The position numbers were made by a program, and so were the translations under genes. The notes under the pieces were generated by a model, which did no database searches, was not told the DNA's origin, and saw nothing but the letters and a program-made list of their open reading frames with translations. DNA of 32,000 nucleotides, taken from positions 1,650,001 through 1,682,000 of the forward strand of contig NC_000916.1 of the NCBI RefSeq assembly GCF_000008645.1, given 5' to 3'. Below are positions 2,251 through 29,105 of this stretch, piece after piece. This DNA comes from Methanothermobacter thermautotrophicus str. Delta H. Lineage in GTDB: Archaea; Methanobacteriota; Methanobacteria; Methanobacteriales; Methanothermobacteraceae. The first letter of the stretch is position 1. Every line of letters starts with the position of its first letter.

Positions 2251-2269
2251 CCTTCGGGGCAGTGTTCAG

Positions 2270-3136
2270 ATGAATGTTCTTGGAGACTATGCGAGATTTC
2301 TCTTCAGGATATCCAGGTTCAGGTTCTGGATCTACACAGGCGGAACCTATGTGATAGGATACACCCTGGCCGCGTCAGGATTTGCAGATTTCCTCTCACC
2401 TGCCTACTACCTCTACCTGATATACTTTTTCTTTCCGGCCAGTATCTTCATATACGGGGTTAATGACTGGTGGGATGAGGAAACCGACATTCTGAACCCC
2501 AAGAAGGGCTCCAGAGAACATATGCTGGCCCAGGATGAGAGAAAAAGATTGAAGAGATCGATAATACTAGTAACCGTCATCAGCTTCCTTATGATGCTAT
2601 CACAGACACTTACGGAGGCCCTAATTTTCATGGGATTCCTTTTTTTATCATACTTCTACAGCGCACCCCCACTTCGCTTCAAGGAGAGACCCTTCCTGGA
2701 TTTCTCATCCAACTACCTCTATATAATGCCGGGAATATTCGCATACAACCTTGCATCGGGCGCCCTTCCGGACCCGCTGATCCTCTTTGCCGGTTACTGC
2801 CATGTTGCAGCCATGCACATCTTCTCGGCCGTACCTGATACTGAATATGACAGAATTGCAGGTATAAACACCACCCCCGTTTTCATCGGCAGAAGACCGG
2901 CCCTTGCACTTTCAGCCTTCTTCTGGTTACTGCTATCCATTATAACAGTATTCGTTACAGGATTCCATCCACTGAGCTTCCTGGTATTCATATACCCGGC
3001 ATTTCCCCTTTCAGTGCTTCTAATAAGGAGAATAAGAATAGAGAAGATATACTGGTATTTACCCCATGTTAACACTGCCCTCGGCGGCCTTCTATTCCTT
3101 GCACTCATAAACTACAGGGTGTTTCACTGGATATAA
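2270..3136 (+). CDS. UbiA-family membrane prenyltransferase (lycopene-elongase/LyeJ-like by context)
   Basis: Polytopic hydrophobic protein with Asp-rich motifs GVNDWWDEETD and DTEYDRIAGINTTP. ATG 2270 (MNVLGDYARF) is preferred over the track start at 2180, which would overlap crtB by 71 nt. The LyeJ-like assignment rests on neighbours only. Confidence 0.75.
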   Translation: MNVLGDYARFLFRISRFRFWIYTGGTYVIGYTLAASGFADFLSPAYYLYLIYFFFPASIFIYGVNDWWDEETDILNPKKGSREHMLAQDERKRLKRSIILVTVISFLMMLSQTLTEALIFMGFLFLSYFYSAPPLRFKERPFLDFSSNYLYIMPGIFAYNLASGALPDPLILFAGYCHVAAMHIFSAVPDTEYDRIAGINTTPVFIGRRPALALSAFFWLLLSIITVFVTGFHPLSFLVFIYPAFPLSVLLIRRIRIEKIYWYLPHVNTALGGLLFLALINYRVFHWI

Positions 3137-3150
3137 CCCAACGGGATACT

Positions 3151-3897
3151 TCACCATAATTTAAACCTGGGTGTTCTTAATATGAGTGCAATGAGCATGA
3201 GGCCTGCAATGAAGGGTATCTCAAGGCCAAGGAAGAGGCAGGCACCTGTCCAGAAACACATTATCAGGTAAAGACTTGATACAGCACCATTACCCATCTC
3301 CTGCAGGGAGTCACCGGGCACTGCCAGTGAGATCAGTGCAGCCCCCAGACCTGAGAGAATCCAGCCCGCGAAGTTCTGTAGTGGAACCCCATAGAAGATC
3401 CCCGGATTCACCCACACCCAGAATTTGAGGGCAACTGCAGCCGGGTCAATAACCACGTCGGTTAATGCAGCAATAAGGGCCGCCAGGATCAGAAATTTAA
3501 CCCTGCCCTCAACACACTCCTTTGCAAGGTAGGCGGATCCAAGGAACAGGGGTAGCCACGCGAATGGAACCGTGAAGGGGGTGTAGCCTAGTATCTTCAG
3601 GCCGATCATATCACCGTAGTAGAACTCAGAGTAGGGAAAACCGGTTATTATGGCAAGGGTTTCAATCGAAATTGCATAGATGCCAAGAACGAGTATCAGT
3701 AAAAAGCCACGGGACCCGAGGCTCCTTATGGTTGATATGAATGATGGAACAGCCATTGAAATTATGAATATAACTGATACGATCCAGTAACCCTCTATTC
3801 TCATGCCGGTAACAGGGTATGAGCTCAGAGCAAGTATGATACCCGTCAGCAGTATCATCAGGGAGGTCCTTCCGGCTTTATCAGACATACTGAACAC
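3151..3897 (-). CDS. Carotenoid biosynthesis membrane protein, CruF-like (Caroten_synth/DUF422-type family, from memory)
   Basis: Multi-TM protein with GFPYSEFYYG, a DVVIDPAAV..FWVW block and FYGVPLQNFAGW. These match my recollection of the CruF bisanhydrobacterioruberin hydratase family. It is convergent with the UbiA gene, with a 14-nt gap. Confidence 0.65.
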   Translation of the reverse strand: MFSMSDKAGRTSLMILLTGIILALSSYPVTGMRIEGYWIVSVIFIISMAVPSFISTIRSLGSRGFLLILVLGIYAISIETLAIITGFPYSEFYYGDMIGLKILGYTPFTVPFAWLPLFLGSAYLAKECVEGRVKFLILAALIAALTDVVIDPAAVALKFWVWVNPGIFYGVPLQNFAGWILSGLGAALISLAVPGDSLQEMGNGAVSSLYLIMCFWTGACLFLGLEIPFIAGLMLIALILRTPRFKLW

Positions 3898-5483: not shown

Positions 5484-6470
5484 ATGATCGAATCAAAATA
5501 TACTAACAAGGGATCTGATTTTAGTGAAACAGAACTTGAAGAGCAGGAAATAATGGATGCCTACTCAGAGGCTGTTATGGGTGCAGCCGATAGAGTGAGC
5601 CCCTCCGTTGTAAGGGTAACAACGGTGGCCCGATCAAAAAACAGGACCGTGGGTGGAGGTTCAGGTCTCATATACACTGAATACGGGCATATAATCACAA
5701 ACAGTCATGTTGTCCACGGATCAGAGAGAATTGAAGTAACACTGAACACAGGGGAAGAGTACCGGGCAACTGTTGTTGGTGATGACCCCCACACAGACAT
5801 CTCGGTCCTGAAAATCGAACCTCAGCATGAACTCAGAACACCTGAATTTGCAGACTCCAGCAGGGTGAGGGTGGGACAGCTTGCCCTGGCAATAGGCAAC
5901 CCCTTCGGGTTCCAGTTCACAGTAACAGCAGGAGTTGTGAGTGCAACCGGCAGATCCCTGCGGACCATGACAGGGAGGCTCGTGGATGGGGTTATACAGA
6001 CAGATGCAGCACTAAACCCTGGAAAATCAGGCGGACCACTGGTTGATTTTCGCGGAAGGGTCCTGGGGATAAACACGGCCCTTATAAGACCTGCTCAGGG
6101 GCTTTGCTTTGCAATACCATCAAATACAGTCAGGGAAGTCGCAGATAAACTTATAGAGGATGGTAAAATAAGAAGGGCCCACCTGGGAGTGGCCTGCCAG
6201 AACATGGTGCTGAAGCCAGAAACAGTTGAGAAACTGAAACTGAATTCGGATAGGGGAGTTATGGTTGCATCACTCTCAGATGGTCCGGCAGGAGATGCTG
6301 GAGTCATGCGTGGTGATATCATAATAGCCCTCGACGGCGAAGCAGTTGAAACAGTCGATGACCTTCACAGAATCCTCAATGAGGAAAGGATCGGTATGGA
6401 ATGTGATCTGGATGTCATAAGGGGGTCTGAGATCTTTAAAATCTCTGTGAAACCATCAGAACTGGAATAA
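5484..6470 (+). CDS. htrA: HtrA/DegP-family serine protease with C-terminal PDZ domain
   Basis: Catalytic contexts ITNSHVV (His), DISVLKI (Asp) and NPGKSGGPL (Ser) are present. A PDZ-like tail follows (GVMRGDIIIALDGEAVETVDDL). There is no N-terminal hydrophobic signal or TM segment. Confidence 0.85.
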   Translation: MIESKYTNKGSDFSETELEEQEIMDAYSEAVMGAADRVSPSVVRVTTVARSKNRTVGGGSGLIYTEYGHIITNSHVVHGSERIEVTLNTGEEYRATVVGDDPHTDISVLKIEPQHELRTPEFADSSRVRVGQLALAIGNPFGFQFTVTAGVVSATGRSLRTMTGRLVDGVIQTDAALNPGKSGGPLVDFRGRVLGINTALIRPAQGLCFAIPSNTVREVADKLIEDGKIRRAHLGVACQNMVLKPETVEKLKLNSDRGVMVASLSDGPAGDAGVMRGDIIIALDGEAVETVDDLHRILNEERIGMECDLDVIRGSEIFKISVKPSELE

Positions 6471-6494
6471 GCCCATCTAAAGTTTTATTAAGAG

Positions 6495-6522
6495 GGGGTG
6501 CCAGACTAATTCTGGAGACCCC
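6495..6522 (+). promoter_or_regulatory. Imperfect intergenic stem-loop between htrA and the AAA+ gene
   Basis: GGGGT-g-CCAGA, loop CTAAT, TCTGG-ag-ACCCC, giving 5 + 5 bp with an internal loop. It is preceded by a TTTT at 6483-6486. Function unknown. Confidence 0.25.
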
Positions 6523-6538
6523 ATTGGCAGTGGTTTGA

Positions 6539-7435
6539 ATGAATACAACTGAAAAGCTGGATAAAATCGACACATCACTCAGAAATGTGGGATACATACC
6601 GAGCAGGGACATCATCATAACCCTTTTTCTCTCATCGGAACTGAAAAAACCTGTTCTCGTGGAGGGCCCGCCCGGGACCGGTAAAACACTTCTAGCTAAA
6701 AAAACTGCAGAGGCACTGGGAAGAGAGTTCTTCAGGATACAGTGCTATGAGGGCATAACCTTCGAGCAGATAGTCGGAGAATGGAACTACCAGAAACAGC
6801 TTCTGAGCCTTGAAAAGTCACGAATCCATGGATCCGATGAAGACGTCTTCAGGGAGGATTACTTCATAAAAAGACCACTCCTATCGGCATTCATCAACGA
6901 GAAACCCTCACTGCTCCTGATAGATGAGATAGACAAGGCAGATGAGGAGGTCGAGAGTTTCCTCCTCCAGGCCCTCGGTGAGAAGCAGATAACGGTCAAT
7001 GACCTTGGAACCTTTGACCTGCGAAATGATATAATGGTTTTCCTCACCTCCAACTCCCAGAGGAACCTCCTCGACGAGACAAGGGACAGGTGCCTTTACA
7101 TCCACATTGATTACCCTGACCCTGAACGTGAGATGGAGATCGTGAGGGCTCACGTTCCATCAGCACCTGAGGGCCTCATCAGGGAAACTGTAATGCTCAT
7201 AAACAGGATAAGGGGGCTGGGAATCATCAAGAAACCCTCCATAAGGGCCACCGTGGACTGGATCAGGACCATCATGGCCCTTGGAAAGGATAGCCTGGAC
7301 TCCGATACTCTTAAGGAAACCCTTGGAGTTGTTATAAAGAACAGGGCGGATGAAGCAAAGGTCCTTGATCTTGTGGAATCGGTTGAGGGGAAAGATGAAG
7401 AGGATCATTCATCTATCAAACATATTAAGGGATAG
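6539..7435 (+). CDS. MoxR-class AAA+ ATPase (CoxD-like)
   Basis: Walker A GPPGTGKT and Walker [11 protein letters not shown] are present. Size is about 300 aa, typical of MoxR. It is followed by an overlapping VWA gene. Confidence 0.85.
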
Positions 7436-8504
7436 GGGGGTCCCGGTAAGCATAAGGGGCACCATGGACGCATCTGAGGCCTATCGAATATTTAAGGGGA
7501 GGCCTGAACTCAGGGATGCCCTCTTCTCGGTTTACGTTAAGGACCCAAGACACGCAGGCGCATTCATGGAGGCCTACGAGGAGATCTTCGGAGTTCCAGC
7601 GAAAAATGAATCAGAGGAATCAGGAGAAGGCGAGGGACTACATCACCTAAGGTCATCAGAAAATTTTTCAGGCAATTCAGAGGCGGAAATGGGAATTGAT
7701 GAGCTTTCACAGCTCAAACCCGAAATTGAGGAGTTAACTGACCCTTCAATGGATGTGGCCGCAGTCATGGACAGGGACATGTCCACCCTCAATTCATTCG
7801 ACCCGGAGATATTTGAGCTATGCCGCAGACTTGGAATAAAAATTGCCAACAGAAGATCAAGGAGGCTACGCCAGTCCAGGAGGATGAAGCCGGATATAAG
7901 GCGGAGCATAAGGAAGAACATTAAACATGGGGGCACAGTGCTTGAACTTATACGCTCAGAACCGAGGGAGAGGAAGAGCCAGCACATATTCCTCAGTGAT
8001 GTGAGCGGGTCTTGTGACTGGATAAGCAACTGGTTCTTCTGCATAATCTACGCAGCCCAGCGCACATTCTACCGTTCACGATTCTTTGACTTCGACAGCC
8101 GAATAGTTGAGACAACCCACCTGCTGGATGAGGACGACCTCTACGATGCCTTCAGGAATCTCAGGGAGTCAAGAATCAGGAATTTAATGATCCACGGAAC
8201 ATCCAATATGTACACAGCATTCAGGGATTTTATTGAAGGCGTAACCTTCACAGGAAAATCATACATAGTTATCCTCTCAGACTGCAGGGACTGGGCCGGT
8301 CCAAGGAGGGATGGTATCCCTGAGAGCGTTGAACTGGTAGCTGAGATGTCAGAGAGGGCCCGGAAGGTTCTGATACTTAACCCTGAACCTGAAAAGAAGT
8401 GGGACGTCGTGGATAGCTGTGTTTCACTTTACCGGGATGCCGGGGCAAGCGTGATGGAGGTCAGGACACTCAGACAGCTTGCAGAGGTTATAGAAGGGCT
8501 TTAA
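7395..8504 (+). CDS. VWA domain protein, CoxE-like
   Basis: MIDAS-type motif [10 protein letters not shown] and a basic [11 protein letters not shown] segment. ATG 7395 is preceded by GAGGGG and is preferred over the track start at 7350. Either start overlaps the MoxR gene. Confidence 0.75.
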
Positions 8505-9262
8505 AGGAAATTATCCAGTGTAACGCCCCTGTTTGATCTCAGCTCCCGTGGGGGTTCGATCTCCCTGAACTCAAGGCCCTCCTCCTCCAGCATCTCCATG
8601 GCATCATGGGTTATGGATGGAGCCACGAGAACACCACGCACACCCACCCTATCCTCCCTGAACTCATCAACATACCTTTTAAGCTGTTTAACTGCACTCA
8701 CTCCGGCCTTCCTGCTTTTAAGCTCAATTATCATGAGGGAACCATTCTCATCCTTTCCCAGTATGTCAATGAAGCCTGAAGTGACGGCATACTCCCTTGC
8801 AACGGGCCGGAAACCCTTCTCAATGAGGTGGGGGTGCATGATTATCATATCACCCATATCGTTCTCATGACCTGCAACCATGAGATCATGGACGTCCCTT
8901 GCAAGGTAATATGATACAAGGTGGGCCTCATGGATTTCGACCTCAAGGCGCTCTTCAGGGTCCCTCCGGATACTCTCGAGGTAGAGGCTGCCCCTCTTGA
9001 TATAGGCACGTGACCTTGATTTGGGTGGCTGCCAGTTAACAGGATCCACCTTACGGTCCTGGTGCACCATGAAGGTCCCATCGGGTTTTATGACGATCAG
9101 CCTTTCACCGGCATCAAGCCTGCTCCTTGCACGACCCTCATAGGATGCACTGCAGCAGGCGAGTATCACCACAAGGGCCCTCTTCCTTATACCATCCTCT
9201 ATTAAACGGTAGGCCTCCTTTATCGACGGATTTTCAGATACCTTGCACTTCATGCAGTTCAC
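8501..9262 (-). CDS. nucS: Endonuclease NucS (EndoMS, mismatch/branched-DNA nuclease)
   Basis: A PD-(D/E)XK core is present ([24 protein letters not shown]), and the length is about 250 aa. The track start 9262 is GTG. ATG 9253 (MKCKV) sits about 26 nt downstream of a TTCAATAAA TATA-like box, so the transcript may be leaderless. Confidence 0.85.
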
Positions 9263-9447
9263 ATTCAGCGTTTATTGAAAAGTTCAGTCAGTTAACTGTA
9301 ACTGGTACTCAGTGATCGCAGATCACCGGGCAACTAAATCTACCCTGTCAGTGTAAATATTAATATCGACCCTGATATAAACTATAGTCTGTCTGAGAGA
9401 TTTTATGTCTACCTTACGAACTGTGAGCTGGAGAAAGTTGTGTGTCC

Positions 9448-10845
9448 ATGATAAAGGAGTTTTTCATAGGAACCGAGATATCGCCTGCATATTACGGGGA
9501 GCTACTTGATTTCATCTACCGTTACTACCTCATCCCCGGAGAATTCACTGACATCAGAAAAGAGGCCCTCAAAATAGCTTTCAGGGCTTTAAGGAAGGAT
9601 GGGGTGATATACGGGGAGCTTATTGGAGGCGGGGACTTTAAACTGATCCTGGATTACCCCCGGAATCTTGAGGAATGGGCCCACTCAATATACGCGGATA
9701 TATTCACATCCATCCAGGTCTTTGAGGATGTCCTCCGGCAGCACACAATATACTTTGCCTGGGTGGAGGGGGAGGATATAATCCCTGAAAAACCCCCCAC
9801 GAGGAGGGGAATGGCGTCCAGGGGGATATTCGGAAGCAGCATGCTCCTTGTCTATGTACTGTTCTTCGGGGTGAACATAATCCTCTTCGTAATCCTTGGC
9901 TTCTATGCTGTTATCGCAATTCTCCTCATGCAGCTTGGAATAATCCTCCTCTCTGACAGGATATACGCGAGGATGGGGGAGTGGGTTCTCACAAAGGATA
10001 ATCCCAGCGTACACATAGTCCAGTTCCAGCTTCCAGAGGATGAATTCAGGTTCTTTATAAAGACAATGGGAGAAGATGCGGTTGTCAGGATAAAAAGGGA
10101 GATCTATGATGCTTCACTTGCAAATAAAAGGCCCCCCACCTGTGATGACGCCCGGAGTGTCCTGGAGAGGCATGGATTCAGATGCAATCCCCTTTATGAG
10201 AGGTCAAGGACGGTGAACCTCTACAGAATAGTTGAAAGAGCCGCATCAGCCTTTGGGATACCGGTACCGAAGGTGGTGCTTGCAAATACCATGATAGCAA
10301 ACGCTGCAGCAACTGGTCCAGGTCCAGGGAGGGGGCTGGTGCTTGTAACCACTGGCCTGGTTGTTCAGCTCACCGATGATGAGATCCTTGCAGTCATAGG
10401 ACATGAGATGGGGCACCTGGTTGGACGGGACCCGATCATACTCTTCAGCATAGTCTCAGCTGAGTTCATACTGAGGCTCACAGTGCTCCTTCCCGTGGTT
10501 ATCATTTCACCCATACTCTACATAATCGTTGCAATGGGCGTAATATTCTTCGTGGCAAAGTTCTTTGAGGCCAGGGCCGACCTGCTATCTGCAATGACCC
10601 TCGGTAAACCTGAGGTACTGGCCAGGGCCCTCAGGAAGATAGGTTACCAGAAACTTGCCCTGGAGAAAAGGGGATCACAGAGGATAACGGGCTGGACAGC
10701 ATGGGATCCTCATCCACCCATATATTTCAGGATAAACCGTCTCGAAAACCTCCGGGATTACAGGAACATTAAGAGCCCACTTCTTCAATCTGCAGGGGAT
10801 GTTATAAGGGGCCTGAAGGAGGCCATTCTCCACATGTTCTCCTGA
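9448..10845 (+). CDS. M48-family zinc metalloprotease (HtpX-like) with extra N-terminal soluble domain
   Basis: The HEMGH zinc motif is flanked by hydrophobic helices. About 120 aa of non-membrane N-terminal sequence precede the first TM pair. ATG 9448 is preferred over GTG 9442. Confidence 0.75.
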   Translation: MIKEFFIGTEISPAYYGELLDFIYRYYLIPGEFTDIRKEALKIAFRALRKDGVIYGELIGGGDFKLILDYPRNLEEWAHSIYADIFTSIQVFEDVLRQHTIYFAWVEGEDIIPEKPPTRRGMASRGIFGSSMLLVYVLFFGVNIILFVILGFYAVIAILLMQLGIILLSDRIYARMGEWVLTKDNPSVHIVQFQLPEDEFRFFIKTMGEDAVVRIKREIYDASLANKRPPTCDDARSVLERHGFRCNPLYERSRTVNLYRIVERAASAFGIPVPKVVLANTMIANAAATGPGPGRGLVLVTTGLVVQLTDDEILAVIGHEMGHLVGRDPIILFSIVSAEFILRLTVLLPVVIISPILYIIVAMGVIFFVAKFFEARADLLSAMTLGKPEVLARALRKIGYQKLALEKRGSQRITGWTAWDPHPPIYFRINRLENLRDYRNIKSPLLQSAGDVIRGLKEAILHMFS

Positions 10846-14363: not shown

Positions 14364-16388
14364 TTAAAGTCTTCTGGCGGATGTTAAGCCTCCAAGAACC
14401 AGAAGAATGGATACTATGATCCCTGCTACCGGTGAACCGGTTCTCTCCATCCCCACAACGGTGGTAGTGTTTGTTCTGTTAGCAGGACCTGGAGATCCCC
14501 GAATAGTTACAGTGGTTTGAACGAGCTGGTAGTCTCTGGCGGTTACTGTGGCAGTACCGGGACCTTCATCAGCCCTTAAAACCGTAATGGCCATACCATT
14601 GGTCCAGGGGACTGTTATAGATTTACTGCCCAGGTTCCCCAGGCTGGTTGTGAAGGTCACCCGTGGGCCGCTGAAGAAGAGGGCGGCATCTGCACTGTGA
14701 TCACCGCCAGCCACATCATGGTAGACACTGGCGGTAATGGTTGAGGTTCCACCAGTGTTTATGGTGGAGGGACTTGCATCGATCTTCAGAACCAGCCATG
14801 GATAGTATTTTAGGGTTCCATTGCCAGGGAAGAATTTAGCGGTATCAGGACTGTTGGTACCATACCAGTTGTAGGAGGCGGTGGTGTTACTGTTTTCCAG
14901 CTGATGAAAGAGTCTGTCCAGATCGTCCCGTATGGGCTTCAGGATGGGTTCCAGTTCCGGATGCTCTTTAATGGCATCATCAAGTGGTTTAAGCATTTCA
15001 TCGATGCTGGGCCCGAAGTTGGAAAATAGAAAGTTCTGGATATAATATTCATAATTGGCGATACGGTTGTAGTTTATGGTCCCGTTAGGTGAGCAGATCA
15101 CTATACCTATCCCTGCGCCATCCCCTTCTATGTTGTTACCGGTGACCCTTGTTGTGTTAAAGCCTGCAGCCACCATGGAAACGTCACGGGTTCCATTTAC
15201 TCCATTTACCATGTTATGGATCATTTCAAGATGTGCCAGGGCAACACCCACAATACCTGCAGCCACACCAGGGGAGGTGATATCTGAAGCAATGTTATTT
15301 TTCAGGGTTGCATTGTTTAGGAGGCCCAGGCCTAACATGGCTACGGATGCACTGGCTTTGCTGATACCGGATACAAGGTTACCTTCCATTTTAAGGTCCC
15401 CGATGGCAACGATAACCATTCCAACTGCCTGTTGCCCCGCCACTATGGATGATATTATATTTTTGGATATTTCAACGGTTCCATTTCCCACTATGGCGGC
15501 TTCAAGCGCATAGACAGAACTGTTGGCAGAACCCTGTAAATTTAAGATCCTGTTACCTGATATGATGGCATTAACGCTGTCACTGACTATTTCCATTCCC
15601 ATAATGGCACTGAAGGCAGTTACACCGTCAATGATGTTCCCGGTAACCACTAAACTGGCCACACTGGCCAGCTCGGGGTTTCCACCGGCACCCTTGCTTT
15701 TTCCAAGCTGGAATCCGAATACGGCGCCATTAGAAGTGCTTATATTTGACAGGGTGTTCCCGCTTAGATTAAAACTGTCTAAAGTCCCGTTGGTGGAAAC
15801 AGTAACCCCACAGATGGTTCCCTCACCATTCATGTTTAATATGCGGTTTCCGGAAACCGTGAAGAAACCCTGGGAAATGTTAGCAAATATACCATTCTCA
15901 TAGGGACCAGAAATAACGTTATTTAAGATTGTGGTGTTGCATCCTGAAACAGCAATCCCTGTTTTACCACCATTAATCCTGTTATTTTCAATTTTACAGT
16001 TATCTGCACTTATATTAACCCCGACACCATGGGGAGGACTGTTTATTATGAACCCCCTTATTGTGCTTCCGCTGCCATCACCGGTCCCATCGTTTACCAG
16101 GGTGAATGCTGTGTTAGCAGGGTTTATTTCCACATCATCGCCGTTATTAGCCTGTATTATGAGTTTCTTGTTCACGGTAACATCCTCATGATAGGTTCCA
16201 CCGTGTACATTGATAACGTCACCCTCCAGGGTACTGGAATTATCAATTGCTGCCTGGATCGAGGTGTAGATCTGACCTGACCCCACATCCCACTGGGTTG
16301 CCGATGCATTACCTGCACAGAAAAGACAAATAGCAACCAGAAAAAGACCTCTATAAAATTTAGAACAGGTTTTCTTCAAATTCTCCAC
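14364..16388 (-). CDS. Secreted cell-surface protein (adhesin-like): parallel beta-helix (PbH1) repeats, Ig-like domain, C-terminal sorting-signal-like anchor
   Basis: Signal peptide MENLKKTCSKFYRGLFLVAICLFCAGNASA (GTG start). There are many repeats of about 22-25 aa of the N.I.G....GI type (NNRINGGKTGIAV, GNRILNMNGEG, GNIIDGV, GNRILNLQG, GNNIEGDGAGIGI). A Thr/Ser-rich beta domain and NRTNTT sequons follow. The tail is MERTGSPVAGIIVSILLVLGGLTSARRL. Confidence 0.8.
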   Translation of the reverse strand: MENLKKTCSKFYRGLFLVAICLFCAGNASATQWDVGSGQIYTSIQAAIDNSSTLEGDVINVHGGTYHEDVTVNKKLIIQANNGDDVEINPANTAFTLVNDGTGDGSGSTIRGFIINSPPHGVGVNISADNCKIENNRINGGKTGIAVSGCNTTILNNVISGPYENGIFANISQGFFTVSGNRILNMNGEGTICGVTVSTNGTLDSFNLSGNTLSNISTSNGAVFGFQLGKSKGAGGNPELASVASLVVTGNIIDGVTAFSAIMGMEIVSDSVNAIISGNRILNLQGSANSSVYALEAAIVGNGTVEISKNIISSIVAGQQAVGMVIVAIGDLKMEGNLVSGISKASASVAMLGLGLLNNATLKNNIASDITSPGVAAGIVGVALAHLEMIHNMVNGVNGTRDVSMVAAGFNTTRVTGNNIEGDGAGIGIVICSPNGTINYNRIANYEYYIQNFLFSNFGPSIDEMLKPLDDAIKEHPELEPILKPIRDDLDRLFHQLENSNTTASYNWYGTNSPDTAKFFPGNGTLKYYPWLVLKIDASPSTINTGGTSTITASVYHDVAGGDHSADAALFFSGPRVTFTTSLGNLGSKSITVPWTNGMAITVLRADEGPGTATVTARDYQLVQTTVTIRGSPGPANRTNTTTVVGMERTGSPVAGIIVSILLVLGGLTSARRL

Positions 16389-18638: not shown

Positions 18639-18652
18639 TTTTATAAAGGTTT
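18639..18652 (-). promoter_or_regulatory. BRE/TATA promoter candidate (minus strand AAACCTTTATAAAA), proximal copy, upstream of nadA
   Basis: Near-consensus box. The predicted TSS is about 18617, giving a leader of about 48 nt for nadA. Confidence 0.45.
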
Positions 18653-18699
18653 CCATGGAGACCTTTGGGTCTAGGTGAGTTTCAGTCGGCATTCCCATG

Positions 18700-18713
18700 T
18701 TTTATAAAGGTTT
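18700..18713 (-). promoter_or_regulatory. Second identical BRE/TATA-like 14-mer (AAACCTTTATAAAA), distal copy
   Basis: Exact 14-bp duplicate 61 bp upstream of the proximal copy, and 22 nt past the stop of the Roadblock-fusion gene. Confidence 0.35.
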
Positions 18714-18734: not shown

Positions 18735-19814
18735 TCATTCCTCCCAGATCTTCCTCAGCTCTGGGTGAATTGTCCCGGTTATTCCAAGTTCATCCATGGC
18801 AGCTCTGTAGGCCCTGTGGATCCTGCTGAACTCTGGTCGTATCATCCCCCTGAATGCATCGTACCCCATAACGCGACCATAATTTTCTGTTATGGATGTT
18901 ATTATCCTCTCGAAGTCTTCCTTAATCTTCTCGATGCTGTGACCTGAGCCTTCAATATTCTCTCTCAGCCTTCTGAAGTCGAGGGATGCGCTTCCAAGGA
19001 CTTTCACGTCTCTGAGTGTTTCAGGGCATTCAATGTATGGGAGGGACTTTCTGAGCATCCCACCAGCCGGGGCAACCCCCATTATCTTGCTGGCCCCGAT
19101 TGACATTGCAAGGAGTACGTGCTCGTAGATGGTGAGGGCGGTTTCAATCCGCCCCTCAGGGTCGCCGGGGACCTCAAGGGGCCTCAGTTCAGGTAGTGAG
19201 AGTGGAGGTTTGACCTCAGGTATTCCTGGTGATTCCATGGGTTCACGGTCACCCTCATCAGGCACTGAATCACCTGCAGGGGCCCTGGCGGCCATTCCAG
19301 CTTCATCATCCATGACCTCAGATTCAGTGGAATCTGCAGGAACATCAGATTCTATCAAAAGCGTTTCAGATACATTTGAGTCCTTAACCTCGCTGATTTC
19401 GGACTTTCCTCTAACATCAGTGTATTCTGGTCCTGTAACTGTAGCTTCATCCCTATCAGGGGCAATGGCCGTCTTCAGGGAAGCCAGTTCACTGGCCATA
19501 TCAGGTTCTGATAGCCTCCTCATGGTCTTCCTTGCAAGGAGAATAATCCTCCCGAGATTGGATCTCCTGTCAGCCAGTACAAGTAGCTGGTGGCTGTCGT
19601 TCAGGAGCACCATCTTCCCGCCAGGGAACTCCATCACGGCGGACCTGTATTCCCCCTGCCCTGCCAGGTTTATGAGTTTACCCGAGGCATCAGCCATGAC
19701 CTGGGCCATTGATCCCAGGTCCCTGCTGAATGATCCGGCACCGTAGATGATCCGGCCTGAGCTTTCGGTTATGATAACCCCCTCGACACCATCAATTTCC
19801 AGGATTTCGCCCAC
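18735..19814 (-). CDS. Roadblock/LC7 (MglB-like) domain protein fused to a long acidic linker and an unknown C-terminal domain
   Basis: The N-terminal 100 aa follow the Roadblock pattern (IDGVEGVIITESSGRIIYG...GKMVLLNDSHQLLVLADRRSNLGRI). An acidic/Pro-rich low-complexity stretch of about 110 aa follows, then a globular C-terminus of about 140 aa. GTG start. Confidence 0.6.
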   Translation of the reverse strand: MGEILEIDGVEGVIITESSGRIIYGAGSFSRDLGSMAQVMADASGKLINLAGQGEYRSAVMEFPGGKMVLLNDSHQLLVLADRRSNLGRIILLARKTMRRLSEPDMASELASLKTAIAPDRDEATVTGPEYTDVRGKSEISEVKDSNVSETLLIESDVPADSTESEVMDDEAGMAARAPAGDSVPDEGDREPMESPGIPEVKPPLSLPELRPLEVPGDPEGRIETALTIYEHVLLAMSIGASKIMGVAPAGGMLRKSLPYIECPETLRDVKVLGSASLDFRRLRENIEGSGHSIEKIKEDFERIITSITENYGRVMGYDAFRGMIRPEFSRIHRAYRAAMDELGITGTIHPELRKIWEE

Positions 19815-19844: not shown

Positions 19845-20444
19845 TTAGATGTTCTCCTTCTTTAAAAGTTTGCAGTGTGTTATCCACGCAGCCTTCTTCT
19901 GGCCGGGGGGATAACATGTTATGAGCATCAGCCTTGCATCCCCGCTCTGGGAAAACCTCACAGGGTTTGTTCTGTAGTCCCACCTTATATCATCACCATT
20001 GGATGTCACGGTGTATATGTAGCGTATGGAGGATGATGCATCCTCTATGATTACCCTGTCACCCTTCCTCAGCGCTCCGATCTTCCTGAAGGGTCCTGAG
20101 TAGGTTGTCCTGTGTCCGAGGATTCCGCACTCCCCACCAGATCCTGGCATAACGCTTTCAGGATAGTGGTATACTGATTCATAGGCATTTACGGTGTCCT
20201 CCCTTATCCAGCACTTCACCCCTATACTGGGTATGATGAGCCTTCCAATGACAGGGCCACTGGAGCCGGCGCTGCTGCTGGGTACAGGGTCAAATAGCTC
20301 CCTGGGAGCATTCCTGTAATTCTCAAGGTGAGCCCTTGATCTTTCAAGGGCCTTGTAGTCCTCGAATCCCTTTATTATGATACCTGAACTTAGCATGATG
20401 AAAAAAAGGCATATTAGGGGTGCGTAGAGTCCTGTTTTCTTCAT
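19845..20444 (-). CDS. Sortase-family transpeptidase homologue with N-terminal membrane anchor
   Basis: TM anchor MKKTGLYAPLICLFFIMLSSGIIIKGF, His motif GILGHRT and Cys motif ARLMLITCYP (TLxTC-like). By eye, IAGHTF...KKGSMVYF...LTLITC of S. aureus SrtA aligns to ILGHRT...RKGDRVII...LMLITC. Confidence 0.7.
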   Translation of the reverse strand: MKKTGLYAPLICLFFIMLSSGIIIKGFEDYKALERSRAHLENYRNAPRELFDPVPSSSAGSSGPVIGRLIIPSIGVKCWIREDTVNAYESVYHYPESVMPGSGGECGILGHRTTYSGPFRKIGALRKGDRVIIEDASSSIRYIYTVTSNGDDIRWDYRTNPVRFSQSGDARLMLITCYPPGQKKAAWITHCKLLKKENI

Positions 20445-21191
20445 TTATGACCCTTCTCTGTATTTCCTCAGGATTTTTTTCACATGGCCGGCAATGACGG
20501 ACCTGTATTTTGTCACCCTGTCAGGGTCAGGAATCCAGGCAGTTACCTTGGCGCTGATGCCTGTATCAGTGAATTCCAGTATGATCAGTCCGGGTTCAGG
20601 GTCCTTCAGTATCCCGGGAACCCTCATGAGGACGTCCTTCACATCGGATTCAAATTTCTCCAGGTCCATGTCATAGTCAAGGTTGACCCTCAGTTCAACC
20701 CTCCTCCGGTCTTCAGCAGTGTAATTTACGTAGGCTGTTTTTGAGAAGGTGGAGTTTGGAACCGTCACCATTCCGGCCTCTGGAGTTTCTATCGTCGTTG
20801 TTCTGAATCCAACCTTCCTGACCCTGCCCCGCTGGCCGGCAACTTCGATGGTGTCACCCACCCGGAAACTTTTATCTGCAAGGATGAACATCCCGGATAT
20901 GAAGTTGGATATGATGTCCCTTGATGCAAAACCCACTGAAACACCTGCTATTCCCAGGCTAACGGTTATTGCAGTTATGTCAATGCCGAGTTCCCTGAGG
21001 ACTATGCTTGCTGCGATGAAATAAACACTGTACTTTATTATGTCATTGATGACCTGTATGAGTGTGAGGTCCAGTTCCCATTTTCTGGCGGATTTCCTCA
21101 GGAAGTAGGACGTCCACTTAACAAGGAGGACGGCTACCATCACAGTTACAATTATTATTAGAATGGTCTCAACTGTCAGGAGAGGAGTCAT
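20445..21191 (-). CDS. Small-conductance mechanosensitive channel (MscS family)
   Basis: Three N-terminal TMs, then FRVGDTIEVAGQRGRVRKVGFRTTTIETPEAGMVTVPNSTF. The stop directly abuts the sortase start. Confidence 0.85.
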   Translation of the reverse strand: MTPLLTVETILIIIVTVMVAVLLVKWTSYFLRKSARKWELDLTLIQVINDIIKYSVYFIAASIVLRELGIDITAITVSLGIAGVSVGFASRDIISNFISGMFILADKSFRVGDTIEVAGQRGRVRKVGFRTTTIETPEAGMVTVPNSTFSKTAYVNYTAEDRRRVELRVNLDYDMDLEKFESDVKDVLMRVPGILKDPEPGLIILEFTDTGISAKVTAWIPDPDRVTKYRSVIAGHVKKILRKYREGS

Positions 21192-22092
21192 AAGCCTTCA
21201 CCTCCACTGTCATAAGGTCATCAGCAACATCAGTCACTGGGAATACCTGGCGGGCAGCTTCCAGAATAACCTCGGTGCGCTTGTACCGTGTGCTGAGGTG
21301 TGTGAGGATCAGTCTCTTCACCCCTGCGGATCTGGCAACCTCTGCAGCTTCCCTGGCGGTGGAGTGCCCGCTTTCAGCGGCCTTGTCCTCACTACCCGCC
21401 TCCAGTGTTGATTCGTGTATAAGGAGTTCCGCACCCTCTGCCAGTTTTATAACAGATTCACAGGGGCGGGTGTCCCCTGAGTAACATACCTTCACACCCT
21501 TCCTGGGGCTTCCAAGAACCTCCTCAGGCATTATGATTCTGTCACCGACCCTTACAGGTATGCCTCTGTGCAGTTTCCCGAAGGCCGGGCCCGGCTTGAG
21601 CCCCAGTGCAATGGCCTTTTCTCTGAGGAACCGGGGCCTCTTCTTCTCCTCGAAGCAGTATGCGAGGTTGAATACTGAGTGGGAGGCAGGGGCTGAGGTG
21701 ACACGGTAGTCATCCTCTTCAACAACTGTGCCGCCCCTCACCTCATGGACGTTGATATCGAAGTCGAGGGTGAAGTAGCCCATCTTCATTATGCACTCAT
21801 GCAGCTCATGGATCCCTGGGGGGCCATAGATATCCAGTGGTTCTTCACGACCCCTGAAACCCATGGACTGTATCATCCCGGGTATTCCGAGTATGTGGTC
21901 CCCGTGGAGGTGTGTTATGAATATCCTTGTAACCTTCATGGGACTGATCCCTGCAAGGGCCATCTGCCTCTGGGTTCCCTCACCGCAGTCAAAGAGAAAT
22001 ATTTCACCGGGTATGCGGAGGGCTATGGAGGTGTGGTTCCTGTTTTTCGATGGGACCGCTGATGATGTGCCAAGGAATGTCACTTCCATCAT
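21169..22092 (-). CDS. rnz: Ribonuclease Z (tRNA 3' endonuclease, metallo-beta-lactamase fold)
   Basis: ITHLHGDH motif, N-terminal FLGTSSAVPS, C-terminal LILTHLS. It overlaps the MscS start by 23 nt. Confidence 0.9.
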   Translation of the reverse strand: MMEVTFLGTSSAVPSKNRNHTSIALRIPGEIFLFDCGEGTQRQMALAGISPMKVTRIFITHLHGDHILGIPGMIQSMGFRGREEPLDIYGPPGIHELHECIMKMGYFTLDFDINVHEVRGGTVVEEDDYRVTSAPASHSVFNLAYCFEEKKRPRFLREKAIALGLKPGPAFGKLHRGIPVRVGDRIIMPEEVLGSPRKGVKVCYSGDTRPCESVIKLAEGAELLIHESTLEAGSEDKAAESGHSTAREAAEVARSAGVKRLILTHLSTRYKRTEVILEAARQVFPVTDVADDLMTVEVKAYDSSPDS

Positions 22093-25169: not shown

Positions 25170-25517
25170 TTATGTCAGGAGGTCCTTCACGCGTTCAGCG
25201 CTTCTCCTCATCTCTATACGTATAAGTCCCAGATTTATATCAACATCAGTTATGAGTACAAGTATTCCCTCCCCTGCATCTATCATGAGAGTTTTACCCC
25301 TGGTACCCTCAATCATGACCTGTTCAAGGGGCTCGTGCTTTATCTCCTCAGCTGACCTCTCGGCGGTACCGAACACTGCTGAAGCCATTGCAGCAACCAG
25401 TTCCCCATCGATATCAGATGGCACCTCACTCTCAATTACCAGACCATCCTTACCAACAACAAGGGAACCGTTTACCCCATTGATCCTACCTAAATCTTTA
25501 AGTATTCTTGCTATCAT
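25170..25517 (-). CDS. Roadblock/LC7 (MglB-like) domain protein
   Basis: 115 aa. [19 protein letters not shown]...[27 protein letters not shown] is the canonical Roadblock pattern. SD GGAGG lies 6 nt before the ATG. Confidence 0.8.
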
Positions 25518-25645
25518 ACTATGCCTCCATAAACAGAGTATTCCACCTAAAATATATAGGCTTTAAGCATTTATTAATTAAATGGGTATGACTAACTAAT
25601 TAACAGTTTCTATTTGATTCCAGCAAGTATTAAAGGAGTGATTAT

Positions 25646-26698
25646 TTGCACACATTATCTTCTGTGGAGGAACTCAGGGAGCTGAATCCATTCATAGTAA
25701 TAGGCTGTGGCGGCGGCGGAGAAAAATTCGCAAACTTTGCGGGTGTTGAGGCGGTAGGATTTGTGGATGACGACCCCAGGAAACATGGAACTGAATTTTG
25801 CGGGTTTAAGGTGTCATCAAGCCTTCTTGACCTTATAAAGGAGACAGACGCCCGTAGCGTTGCCATCATGCTCCCCATAGGTGCCGAGGGCACAGCCCTC
25901 AAGTACGCTGTCCAGGCAATAAATGAGGGCAAAAACGTTGTCACCTCCTTCAGATCACTCCCCCTATCAGAGAACACTTCACTCATTAAATTCGCTGAAA
26001 GGATGAATGTGACCATAAAGGAGATAAGCCCCAGGCTCGATAACATCCGGAGGATATTTGGAGTAGCCCCTTCACGCTGCACCGAGATGCTCCCCAAGAT
26101 AAATTACAGGCATAAGGCACCGCTTGTATTTGTTGGTGGAACCTCACAGGAGTGCGGTAAGCGTACAACCACAAGGCTGCTGGGAAAGGAGGCCATTGAG
26201 AGGGGCCTTGAGGTTGGCGTGATATCAACCGATGAAATGGGTCTGGAACAGCCAGTGGACATAAACTTCCGTGCAGGCAGTCTTTCGGTGATGGATGTTG
26301 CAGCGGCCATCATGGGGTCAGTCAAGTACCTTGAGGAGGAAAAGAACCCTGACATCATATTCATAGAGGGGCAGTCCAGTCTGACTGAAAGGGGTAACCC
26401 CCATCCCAGGGGCTTATCAGCTTCGATACTCATAGGTTCAATGCCAGATGCCACAGTGCTCTGTCACAGACCAAACCATCCCTACAGAAAACCTCGAGGA
26501 ATAAAAGAGGAGATAAGGGCCATAGAGGCACTCGAGCCAACTAAGGTTATAGGCATTTCCTTAAATTTAAGAAACATTAGTGACAGATCAATAATGGAGG
26601 AATATGAAAAACGTTTCGGGCTTCCTGTTGTCGATGTTAAAAATGGGGGGGCATCAAGATTGATGGACGTCATCATGGAATACATAGGGGAGATTTAG
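25646..26698 (+). CDS. DUF1611-family protein (Rossmann-like N-domain plus P-loop-like C-domain; DgcN-related family, from memory)
   Basis: [13 protein letters not shown]...VGFVDDDP N-domain and [19 protein letters not shown]-loop-like segment. TTG start with SD AAGGAGTGAT. The stop TAG abuts the sepF start. Confidence 0.6.
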
Positions 26699-27058
26699 TT
26701 GAGGGACATTCTGGAAATGCTGAAAAAAAGTGTCGGACTGGACGAGGAAGTAAGGGAATCCGAGGAGACAGAGACGATAATAGTGCCGGAACATTCATTC
26801 TATGAGATAATCCTACTCAGGGCAGGATCCCTGGGGGATGTGGAGGACGCACTTTCCCAGGTTATCGAGGAGAAAAATCCGGTTATACTTGACTTAACCG
26901 AAATTCAGAGGGATAATCCTGAAGACTTCACAGCCGTCGGTGAACGCATAAAGGATCTGAGGGAGAACCACGGAGCTGAGGCTATACTGATCTGCAATAA
27001 GGAGAAGAATGTTGTTATAATAACTCCAAGGGAAATCAAACTCATCAGGAAGGGGTAG
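26699..27058 (+). CDS. sepF: Cell division protein SepF (FtsZ membrane anchor)
   Basis: About 119 aa. N-terminal amphipathic segment RDILEMLKKSVGL and a DUF552-like core (YEIILLRAGSLGDVEDALSQVIEEKNPVILDLTEI...ILICNKEKNVVIITPREI). TTG 26699 has AGGGGAG 6 nt upstream. ATG 26717 is an alternative start. Confidence 0.8.
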   Translation: MRDILEMLKKSVGLDEEVRESEETETIIVPEHSFYEIILLRAGSLGDVEDALSQVIEEKNPVILDLTEIQRDNPEDFTAVGERIKDLRENHGAEAILICNKEKNVVIITPREIKLIRKG

Positions 27059-27066
27059 TGAACGTA

Positions 27067-28167
27067 ATGGAGCTTCCAATCACCAAACCATCAAAGATAT
27101 CCTACGGTGATGAAATAGACTTCACGGAACTTCTTGAAAGACTCGCCAGGGATGAATACAACGGCTTCATAAGGGTTACGCATGCATCGGATGAGGGTTA
27201 CATCCTTTTCAGGGACGGATCACATGTCGCAGCATCCTACGGACGTTTCATGAAGGGGGAAGCTCTTGATAGGATAATGGAGGTGGCTGATAAAACAGAC
27301 ACCCTAATAGAACTGTTTGATCTTAAAAGGTCACAGCTGGACTATCTCATGGATATAAACAAGATCTATAGAATCGAGGAGACTGCGGCTGAGATAACTG
27401 AAATGCCCGAGGTTGAGGAGGAGTCCTACTTCAACCCCAAGGAGGCAAGCTACAGGCAGCCAGTAACTCCCCGGGAACCTGTAACTGAAAATGAGGAAGA
27501 TGTTAAGGTCAGTGAAGCGGCTCCTGATTCAACAGGAGATGTTTCTGGCGAGGCTGATCAGGGAGTGACTTCAGGTATGGATGTGGCGGTTGAGGGTGAT
27601 GAAGGAACATCTGAATTAACAGATGATAGTTCTGAGGAGACCTCTCAGGAGGAAGCAGCGGTAACAGAATATACTGAAGTTCCACAGGCTTCTGAAGTCT
27701 CTTCCACTGAGGTCACCGTCCAGGAATCTGAAGATGAGTCTGAAGAGACCCGGAAACCCCTCAGCAGGGATGAACTCATGAAAAAATATGGTCTCAAGGA
27801 TATCGGTGAAGAAGAGGTTGAAAGGGTTCTTGAGACATACAAAGGGGGTGCAATTACAGATATAGACCCTGAGAGGGTTGAACTCACCCTGATGAATAAG
27901 ATAAAGATGTCAATACTTGGAATACCCAAAATAAAGGGTGCTGAGGTCATAGTATTCCTTGACAATGCCTATGACCTCAGTGGGAAGATAAAGATAATGG
28001 TTGAACATGAGGGTAAGGGACTGTTCTCTAGGATAATGGGGGACTCCAAGGAGGAGGACAAACTCAAGTTCCACATAATGGACATCGTCGAGATGGAGCT
28101 CAGGAAGACCTTCAGGGATTTCCCTGAGATTGTGGATAACTTTGAGGTGAGTATTGAGATACGCTGA
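27067..28167 (+). CDS. PATAN/DUF4388-like N-domain protein with ~130-aa acidic disordered linker and unknown C-terminal domain
   Basis: FTELLERLARDEYNGFIRVTHASDEGYILFRDGSHVAASYG..KGEALDRIM fits the DUF4388 pattern (tGvLrv..g..G.iyf.dG.ivhA..g...GeeAl). An E/S/T/V-rich linker and a globular tail follow. GTG 27058, overlapping the sepF stop, is an alternative start. Confidence 0.5.
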   Translation: MELPITKPSKISYGDEIDFTELLERLARDEYNGFIRVTHASDEGYILFRDGSHVAASYGRFMKGEALDRIMEVADKTDTLIELFDLKRSQLDYLMDINKIYRIEETAAEITEMPEVEEESYFNPKEASYRQPVTPREPVTENEEDVKVSEAAPDSTGDVSGEADQGVTSGMDVAVEGDEGTSELTDDSSEETSQEEAAVTEYTEVPQASEVSSTEVTVQESEDESEETRKPLSRDELMKKYGLKDIGEEEVERVLETYKGGAITDIDPERVELTLMNKIKMSILGIPKIKGAEVIVFLDNAYDLSGKIKIMVEHEGKGLFSRIMGDSKEEDKLKFHIMDIVEMELRKTFRDFPEIVDNFEVSIEIR

Positions 28168-28213
28168 TCAGATAAGGTCAACTGTTGCCCGGATCGGATA
28201 TCCTGTCCAGAAC

Positions 28214-28234
28214 TAACAATATTTTTATACCGGA
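28214..28234 (+). promoter_or_regulatory. Copy 1 of duplicated TATA-containing box TAACAATATTTTTATACCGGA
   Basis: A near-identical copy lies at 28278-28296, 64 bp downstream, in the 158-bp spacer upstream of minD. Confidence 0.4.
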
Positions 28235-28277
28235 CTTACATGTCTTTAAAGTAGGGTAATTAAAAAGGCGACGTGTG

Positions 28278-28296
28278 TAACAATATTTATATCGGA
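28278..28296 (+). promoter_or_regulatory. Copy 2 of duplicated box TAACAATATTTATATCGGA
   Basis: The TATA core is about 26 nt upstream of the minD SD (GGAGG at 28314-28318). Confidence 0.4.
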
Positions 28297-28325
28297 ATGA
28301 CTGATTATTATCTGGAGGTATTGGA

Positions 28326-29105
28326 ATGACAAGAGTGATTACAGTTGCATCCGGTAAGGGAGGTGTGGGGAAGACAACCATCACTGCAAACCTGGGTGTT
28401 GCGCTCTCAACCTACGGTGAAAGGGTTGTCGTACTTGACGCTGATATAGCAATGGCAAACCTTGAATTAATCCTTGGGATGGAGGGAAAATCCGTTACAC
28501 TGCATGATGTCCTTGCGGGTAATGCTTCAATCGAGGATGCTGTTTATGAGGGACCAAACGGTGTTAGGGTCGTCCCGGCAGGTATATCCCTTGAGGGTCT
28601 GAGGAATGTTAAGCTGGACCGTCTGGAGGATGCCCTGGCCTACCTTATAGAGGATACTGACATACTTCTCATAGACGCCCCTGCAGGGCTTGAAAAGGAC
28701 GCTGTCGCAGCCCTTGCAGCTGCGGATGAACTTCTGCTTGTCACAACACCTGAGGTGCCCTCAATAAGCGATGCCCTCAAGACAAAGATTGTTGCAAGTA
28801 AACTGGATATAAACATAATAGGTGTTGTTATAAACCGTGAACAGTACGATAAAACCTTCCTGAGTGTTGAGGAGGTTGAAACAATACTCGAGGTCCCTGT
28901 AATTGCAGTTATACCGGACGACCCCGAGGTAAGCCGTGCAGCCGCCTTTGGCGAGCCGATAGTCATTAAGAATCCAAAGTCACCGGCAAGTAACGCCCTC
29001 ATGGAGCTTGCAGCAGACCTCATTGGCGAGGAATACCAGCCAATTGAGCCTGACAAGCAGGGAGTTATTGCGAAACTCATAAGCGGTTTAATGGGGCGGA
29101 GATGA
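28326..29105 (+). CDS. minD: MinD/ParA-class septum site-determining ATPase (archaeal MinD)
   Basis: Deviant Walker [18 protein letters not shown] and [16 protein letters not shown] lies 7 nt upstream. Confidence 0.85.

Follow-up and report, generated by a model that had tools for sequence, protein, structure and literature searches.

One gene of Methanothermobacter thermautotrophicus str. Delta H, together with a short signal at the C-terminus of a nearby surface protein, bears on how methanogens with a pseudomurein wall may fix proteins to their cell surface. The gene, here called srt, lies in a stretch of 32,000 nucleotides (NC_000916.1, positions 1,650,001 to 1,682,000; hereafter the window, from whose first letter all coordinates count), and its product has the histidine and cysteine of a sortase and lacks the canonical arginine. 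This raises the question of whether such a protein could still work as a transpeptidase and, if so, on what. The reading that most reasonably fits our observations, to which we give a probability of about 0.5, is that srt encodes a membrane-anchored, outward-facing cysteine transpeptidase without the arginine, which would act on adhesin-like proteins bearing an M-x-x-T-G (MxxTG) signal and fix them to the wall.

The gene was found where a preliminary description, made from the sequence alone, had placed it (19845..20444 on the minus strand, 199 residues, ATG start), as were the N-terminal membrane anchor (YAPLICLFFIMLSSGIII) and the GHRT and LMLITC motifs, which supply His111 and Cys177. That description had also proposed a sortase-profile search and a structure prediction, and both agree with it. 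The product scores 61.9 bits (E 6.5e-17) with the Pfam Sortase family (PF04203, peptidase family C60), whose gathering score is 26.6 bits, and the match spans profile positions 2-124 of 125; searches of the PDB with the sequence returned sortases only. The AlphaFold2 (AF2) model, built on 28 orthologues and with a predicted local distance difference test (pLDDT) score of 81, begins with a membrane helix (residues 4-44) that includes the hydrophobic segment, followed by a disordered linker and a catalytic domain (residues ~62-199) whose eight strands form the eight-stranded sortase beta-barrel, with the His/Cys pair present. When this model was compared with the PDB by Foldseek, the top 50 matches were without exception sortases (classes A, C, D, E and F), with E-values of 2.8e-10 to 1.5e-8 and a template modelling score (TM-score) on the target of up to 0.79. 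Given the profile match and the sortase-only PDB and Foldseek matches, the description of the srt product as a membrane-anchored sortase-fold protein with a His/Cys pair is solid for fold and family. The predicted topology puts MKKTG in the cytoplasm and the catalytic domain outside. A match to Pfam Hint_2 (E 0.03, below cut-off) was dismissed as noise. The identification as a sortase is not new: the product belongs to the 90%-identity cluster of WP_010877431.1 / AAB86295.1 of M. thermautotrophicus Delta H, and the database names in this cluster are 'class E sortase' or 'conserved protein'.

The position of the missing arginine was established from alignments and strand boundaries. A HMMER scan of 1.84 billion representative proteins gave 4064 hits, from which about 30 representatives (E < 1e-19) form the archaeal clade, the remaining hits being taken as bacterial-type relatives. 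In these relatives the sequence around the cysteine follows the pattern TC-x-P-x-G-S-x-x-x-R-L-V-V, which puts the arginine nine residues past the cysteine (Cys+9), the same spacing as in SrtE1 (C320/R329) and B. anthracis SrtA (C187/R196) (PMC5148588). The pattern of the archaeal clade is TC-Y-P-P-G-[KR]-K-x-A-A-[WY]-I-T-H-C-K-L. Among 144 clade sequences Cys+9 is alanine in 132, lysine in six, valine in three and glutamate in three, and never arginine; Cys+13 is histidine in 137 and otherwise tyrosine, asparagine or serine, and Cys+6 is lysine in 118. The lysines at Cys+9 belong to a subclade reading AKW, NKW or HKW. An hhalign comparison of the archaeal family with 48 bacterial relatives (probability 99.96%, ungapped in this region) places His111 and Cys177 on the conserved bacterial histidine and the invariant bacterial cysteine, the invariant bacterial arginine on an invariant alanine, Ala186, and His190 on a variable bacterial position. 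BLASTP against two arginine-containing relatives, P0250 and P0344, gives the same answer: CHPPGSTQYRWVTHLKLV and CHPPHSTRQRWITHLELV align to srt CYPPGQKKAAWITHCKLL, and the arginines of CHPPGSTQYRWVTHLKLV and CHPPHSTRQRWITHLELV stand opposite Ala186 of CYPPGQKKAAWITHCKLL. Furthermore, histidine at Cys+13 coexists with the arginine in these relatives (RWVTH, RWITH) and in C. diphtheriae SrtF (AERMIVHA). Strand beta8 starts at residue 186 in the AF2 model, just as Arg329 stands at the start of beta8 in SrtE1 (PMC5148588); where a canonical active-site arginine would open this strand, srt has Ala186.

Three agreeing alignments thus make His190 an old neighbour of the arginine and not its replacement. 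The preliminary description had held that histidine replaces the catalytic arginine, and this proved to be a misalignment: it was aligned by eye on S. aureus SrtA, whose arginine lies at Cys+13 (C184/R197), four residues off the Cys+9 spacing. Its underlying point survives, as no arginine occurs in the 22 residues that follow Cys177 (YPPGQKKAAWITHCKLLKKENI) and Cys+9 is never arginine in the clade. On the evidence of the aligned sequences, the canonical catalytic arginine is absent clade-wide, with alanine and not histidine in its place. A long form from Methanobrevibacter/Candidatus Methanovirga (P0222, and also P0242) reads TCWPP...AERY.H and has an arginine at Cys+10, which is either a shifted catalytic arginine or an independent residue.

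The His111/Cys177 pair has been kept. Cys177 is invariant in all 144 clade sequences and His111 in 28 of 28 orthologues, or 30 of 30 when the long paralogues are included, and across the wider clade with these paralogues nothing is universal beyond His111, Cys177 and a few structural residues. Such invariance across orthologues and long paralogues argues for a working rather than a decayed active site, and hence that the srt product is still an enzyme. The sortase arginine positions the substrate and possibly stabilises the oxyanion (PMC3019223), and this role would have to be dispensable in srt or supplied from elsewhere; possible stand-ins are Lys183 in the beta7/beta8 loop, Arg154 in the clade-specific motif SNGxDIRWDY, and His190, all three of which are conserved in the short orthologues and not in all paralogues. 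Two further arginines were unconvincing as substitutes, Arg171, at Cys-6, because it stands at the other end of beta7, and Arg112 (of GHR) because it occurs in the arginine-containing relatives too.

A candidate substrate is encoded 3.5 kb from srt in the window, and also near srt in a second Methanothermobacter locus (L001). This 674-residue protein carries a signal peptide at its N-terminus, contains parallel beta-helix repeats and ends in ...TTVVG-MERTG-SPVAGIIVSILLVLGGLTSA-RRL, after which the reading frame stops; the tail has the three-part layout of Gram-positive cell wall sorting signals. About 80 orthologues, annotated as 'cell surface protein' in Methanobacterium and Methanothermobacter and reaching down to 36% identity, keep this tail. 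In 57 distinct orthologue tails the M, T and G of MxxTG are invariant, position 2 is Q, E, K, R or H, and a proline stands two residues past the glycine in 52. Public metagenome contigs were scanned for DNA that could encode T-[VIM]-G-M-Q-[KN]-T-G, by means of a degenerate pattern; at least 120 stretches matched, and 83 matches could be read in the 80 loci listed. Fifty-eight of these continue into a hydrophobic helix, a basic tail and an in-frame stop within 31-36 residues, and the other 25 look like chance. The tails, at least 58 in number and at least 45 of them distinct, sit on open reading frames (ORFs) of up to 3380 residues, and 32 of the 35 complete ORFs listed open with an N-terminal hydrophobic run. 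Their bearers are adhesin-like and diverse, with DUF11, Chlam_PMP, beta-helix, PQQ-propeller and BNR modules; they are described here by Pfam architecture, as single-linkage clustering merged them through the C-terminal modules that they share, DUF11 among them. Exact-sequence look-up could name seven of the signal-bearing loci, and all seven are Methanobacterium; the signal (L142) and a sortase orthologue (L056) occur together in Methanobacterium sp. ACI-7.

The motif pentapeptide is M-Q/E/K-x-T-G and not L-P-x-T-G. The LPXTG_anchor model (TIGR01167) matches one Methanobacterium tail at 17.5 bits (cut-off 15.9), from T-G onward, and another at 14.8, and it does not match the tail of the window protein itself. 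No LAxTG or LPxTG was found at a protein C-terminus among the window ORFs, and the tripartite signals seen in the window and in the loci examined are all M-[QEKR]-x-T-G; no archaeosortase or exosortase family match was found among the window ORFs either, and the PGF-, PEF-, VPXXXP- and PEP-type motifs also differ from MxxTG. A protein search with a profile of the 44-residue tail retrieved five short fragments only, two of which (L081 and L082) look like different protein contexts. In the literature searched we found no description of the MxxTG motif. Judged by conservation and architecture, the MxxTG tail is a true signal of sorting type, widely distributed and, it appears, not described before, and the MERTG region, which the preliminary description had singled out for peptide assays, is part of it.

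Some tail-bearing loci have features of their own. A free-standing ORF of 74 residues (L082 2189-2413, the same as L156) has little beyond the MQKTG signal and no signal peptide; it is perhaps a remnant, or a gene called in error. In L081 (2988-6198) the tail is split from an 843-residue DUF11/beta-helix gene by apparent frameshifts. Genes with MQxTG tails are often paired on a contig, as in L092 (7635, 11288), L127 (4852, 9613) and L132 (190, 2661).

Among known systems the srt product is overall most similar to the class E sortases (S. coelicolor SrtE1, 5CUW; S. avermitilis, 5GO5; Thermobifida fusca, 9IOK). Class E is its best-scoring NCBIfam class and supplies some of the top PDB matches by sequence and by fold, and the two share an N-terminal anchor, the GHR(T) histidine motif, the TCxP cysteine motif and a beta7/beta8 hairpin of equal length. 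In a hidden Markov model (HMM) alignment H93-Y94 of srt (VYHYPE) pairs with H228-Y229 of SrtE1 (VGHYAE), the equivalence of Tyr94 and Tyr229 having been found by counting back from SrtE1 His251. Tyr94 is invariant in the srt orthologues; in class E, Tyr229, a residue of the beta3/beta4 region, makes the contact with position P4 of the signal and shapes the P4 subsite (PMC5148588). Since this tyrosine lets class E accept a residue other than proline at P4, its presence fits a candidate signal with glutamine or glutamate there. The differences are nevertheless substantial: srt has Ala186 where SrtE1 has R329, its candidate signal is M-[QEK]-x-T-G and not L-A-x-T-G, it has the clade-specific SNGxDIRWDY insertion region, and its host is an archaeon with pseudomurein and not peptidoglycan. 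Its score with the class E model (NF033747) is 59.2 bits against a cut-off of 160, that with TIGR01076 is 28.4 against 39.35, and every other sortase-class model is far below its cut-off. By NCBIfam thresholds srt therefore falls outside every defined class, and it is best classed in a distinct archaeal clade of the sortase superfamily. S. aureus SrtA (His120/Cys184/Arg197; LPXTG) shares the fold, the histidine, the cysteine, the motif-final T-G and the tripartite form of the signal and, in raw spacing, a tryptophan at Cys+10 and the residue 13 past the cysteine; it differs in having its arginine at Cys+13, where the nearer relatives of srt fix theirs at Cys+9, the place of Ala186, and in recognising L-P where the candidate signal here has M-Q/E. 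Archaeosortase A of haloarchaea resembles the proposed system in that a cysteine enzyme removes a C-terminal tripartite signal (PGF-CTERM) from secreted proteins (PMC6098224). It is, in contrast, polytopic and unrelated in sequence to sortases, acts on PGF-type motifs, and its substrates are attached to lipid, not to a wall polymer (PMC6098224).

Almost every one of the 226 homologues belongs to Methanobacterium, to Methanothermobacter or to unclassified Methanobacteriaceae, and as far as sampled the clade is limited to these two genera and close relatives. The wider clade includes long paralogues of 270-575 residues with an extra N-terminal domain. In several of these (L078 9416-10435; L080 9488-10450; P0207-P0224) an extra extracellular domain follows the membrane helix and precedes the catalytic domain; one of them, P0213 (575 residues), bears the name beta-propeller repeat protein, and that of L080 shares a contig with the short orthologue L022, so that both forms are possible in one genome.

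We propose the following model for srt function. Secreted adhesin-like proteins would be held in the membrane by the sequence [T][VI]-x-M-[QEKR]-x-T-G-x-P with its hydrophobic helix and basic tail. Cys177 would attack the Thr-Gly bond to give a thioacyl intermediate, which would be resolved by an amine, most likely a free amino group on a stem peptide of pseudomurein or on its lipid-linked precursor, leaving the surface protein fixed to the wall. We infer catalysis, the cleavage site, the pairing of sortase and signal, and the acceptor. The pairing of the arginine-less short sortase with the MxxTG signal has roughly an even chance of being right; the narrow range of MxxTG matches that of the short-form sortase better than the broad range of a second sortase, discussed below, and it counts slightly in favour that substrate and sortase lie close together in the window and in L001. 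A more ambitious statement, that this is an arginine-independent sortase lineage covalently attaching M-Q/E-x-T-G adhesin-like proteins to pseudomurein and the first archaeal sortase-substrate system, we hold only tentatively and would expect to be wrong somewhat more often than right. If true, the sortase reaction would run on a Cys/His dyad with the arginine function lost or moved, for example to Lys183.

Several observations weigh against the proposed anchoring role. The arginine is considered necessary if bacterial sortases are to catalyse efficiently (Marraffini et al. 2004, as cited in PMC3019223), so that an enzyme without it may work slowly, may hydrolyse or may not catalyse at all; in the wider clade no residue that could compensate is found throughout. 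Activity data for any archaeal sortase were not found in the searchable literature. No sortase gene stands beside the at least 58 metagenomic MxxTG proteins among the matches listed, and substrate and sortase adjoin only in Methanothermobacter-like genomes. Finally, M. thermautotrophicus has a second sortase that could read MxxTG.

This second enzyme, WP_010876661.1 of orthologous group OG0001178, gives rise to a rather less likely account in which it processes the MxxTG proteins and the arginine-less short sortase has other substrates, possibly one dedicated target. Two sortases have been reported per Methanothermobacter genome, with no LPxTG proteins reported there (PMC3087415; PMC2812497), and OG0001178, annotated as Sortase_E and with TIGR01076 matches in some members, is shared by all the pseudomurein archaea examined, M. 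smithii and Methanopyrus among them (PMC11915815). It is an archaeal sortase-domain protein of the same genomes as srt that differs in lying in another locus and group, beside a DUF515/CpaB-like gene, and in having a predicted signal peptide and two or three membrane segments; a second sortase was sought near 80 genome loci and in the window, and none was found there. The lack of a conserved linkage between short sortase and MxxTG genes outside Methanothermobacter would also sit well with this account. Against it, MxxTG was found only in Methanobacterium and Methanothermobacter, in a census that is small and not built to show absence, which fits the narrow range of the short sortase and not the broad one of OG0001178, and Methanobrevibacter ruminantium and M. 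smithii, with one sortase each (that of M. smithii being OG0001178), are reported to have a few LPxTG proteins instead (PMC2812497). Sortases in Methanobacteriales are mentioned, as the preliminary description had stated, in genome surveys (PMC2812497; PMC3087415) and in the 2025 pseudomurein pangenome (PMC11915815), which define no substrate.

The absence of the arginine could alternatively mean that srt is a crippled or hydrolase-only relative, serving as a processing protease or a non-enzymatic partner. Alanine in the canonical arginine position, the lack of any single replacement residue conserved across the wider clade and a score far below every NCBIfam sortase-class cut-off (class E, 59 against 160 bits) are all as such a protein would have them. 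Pseudoenzymes, however, usually lose the nucleophile first, and here cysteine and histidine are strictly conserved over 144 sequences and paralogues at ~30-45% identity, the membrane anchor, GHRT and TCYPPG are retained, and a syntenic srt is kept in most of 80 species-level genomes, which leaves this explanation improbable. A role in building the wall itself, with srt cross-linking pseudomurein stem peptides and not anchoring proteins, seems to us very improbable. We know of no identified pseudomurein cross-linking enzyme, and a cysteine transpeptidase fold with a catalytic domain modelled as extracytoplasmic would suit one; the word 'transpeptidase' is also absent from the main text of PMC11915815. 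Yet pseudomurein occurs in all Methanobacteriales and in Methanopyrus, and the srt clade was not found beyond Methanobacterium- and Methanothermobacter-type genomes. Moreover, the srt orthologue is absent from the candidate set of pseudomurein-specific orthologous groups, and even the universal sortase is judged there unlikely to be biosynthetic (PMC11915815).

Wall anchoring of MxxTG proteins by srt therefore remains our preferred reading, and its interest lies in the fact that one organism pairs an annotated sortase departing from the His-Cys-Arg rule with a conserved non-LPXTG tag on dozens of adhesin-like proteins. The one functional study that we found, of a Methanothermobacter DUF11 adhesin, treats the C-terminal helix as a plain membrane anchor (PMC6759345). 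The pairing turns the statement that archaea have sortase homologues into a testable enzyme-substrate hypothesis, with defined peptides (TVVGMERTGSPV and TIGMQNTGIPL), the mutants A186R, H190A and K183A, and a competing enzyme. Should the protein prove active, protein ligation would gain a thermostable sortase that reads a new motif, which is of practical interest, and there would be a target for altering the aggregation or adhesion of industrial and gut methanogens.

Table 1. Coordinates in the window of srt, its key codons, the candidate substrate and the neighbouring genes.
Feature	Position	Strand	Basis
Sortase-fold gene (srt), 199 residues	19845..20444	-	ORF with ATG start; PF04203; AF2 model; Foldseek
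N-terminal hydrophobic membrane anchor, codons for residues ~7-27	20364..20426	-	Sequence; modelled helix 4-44
His111 codon, GHRT motif, equivalent of the catalytic His	20112..20114	-	Invariance; hhalign to bacterial GHR His
Cys177 codon, LMLITC-YPPG motif, equivalent of the catalytic Cys, end of strand beta7	19914..19916	-	Invariance; alignment; modelled strand 170-177
Ala186 codon (Cys+9), homologous to the bacterial catalytic Arg	19887..19889	-	hhalign; BLASTP; clade census; beta8 start
His190 codon (Cys+13), clade-conserved, four residues past the Arg position	19875..19877	-	Clade census; His also in Arg-containing relatives
Candidate substrate, 674-residue secreted parallel beta-helix 'cell surface protein'	14364..16388	-	Translation; orthologues; conserved tails
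Putative sorting signal: M-E-R-T-G, S-P, 20-residue hydrophobic helix, R-R-L, stop	14364..14450	-	Translation; tail conservation
RNase Z gene (rnz), first of the tight run	21169..22092	-	TIGR02651, 384 bits vs cut-off 293
MscS-family mechanosensitive channel gene (mscS)	20445..21191	-	Pfam MS_channel 1st/2nd/3rd domains
359-residue weakly Roadblock/LC7-like gene, GTG start	18735..19814	-	Robl_LC7, E 0.014, below cut-off

The srt gene is part of a tight run (Table 1), and the gene packing reported in the preliminary description is correct: the mscS stop (TAA) directly abuts the srt ATG (20445/20444), mscS overlaps rnz by 23 nucleotides, and a gene of 359 residues starts 30 nucleotides past the srt stop. 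From this spacing, co-transcription of rnz, mscS and srt, and possibly of the fourth gene, is likely. The idea of a four-gene operon ending in a roadblock gene holds in part, for the spacing is tight; the roadblock label, however, is weak (E 0.014) and only rnz-mscS-srt is widely syntenic. The 359-residue product, counted with the run by its spacing, has a weak Roadblock/LC7-like N-terminal domain, a long acidic and proline-rich linker and a conserved C-terminal domain without a Pfam match. Of 80 Methanobacteriaceae loci from species-level genomes, about 75 have divergent nadC, rnz, mscS and srt in this order, and the end of mscS and the start of srt abut or overlap. A roadblock-like gene directly follows srt only in Methanothermobacter-like loci; in Methanobacterium a hydrogenase-type cluster of ~4 kb separates the two, and the roadblock-like gene is kept across Methanobacteriaceae even apart from the sortase (e.g. 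L012 14338-15570). We see no functional logic tying RNase Z to the rest of the run.

Intergenic DNA was read directly, a bacterial promoter scanner being unsuited since archaeal promoters differ. An AT-rich, TATA-like sequence lies upstream of rnz in the 92-nucleotide gap to the divergent nadC. Downstream of the srt run, in the gap upstream of nadA (~18639-18713), AACCTTTATAAAA occurs twice, ~60 nucleotides apart, and these repeats are probably tandem TATA-box-like elements for nadA.

Elsewhere in the window, positions 25170-29105 hold a division- or polarity-like group of a Roadblock/LC7 protein (E 8e-20), DUF1611, SepF, DUF2226 and a MinD/ParA ATPase; in related loci the N-terminus of the 359-residue gene is ~30% similar to this Roadblock protein. 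Positions 5484-10845 are rich in envelope and proteostasis genes, with an HtrA-like trypsin/PDZ protease, a MoxR-type AAA ATPase and its VWA/CoxE partner, NucS, and an M48 peptidase with a long N-terminal extension. Finally, four adjacent genes at positions 21-3897 encode flavin amine-oxidase/phytoene-desaturase-like, squalene/phytoene synthase, UbiA prenyltransferase and PF04240 'carotenoid biosynthesis protein' products, which resemble a carotenoid-type isoprenoid pathway and are unexpected in a strictly anaerobic methanogen.

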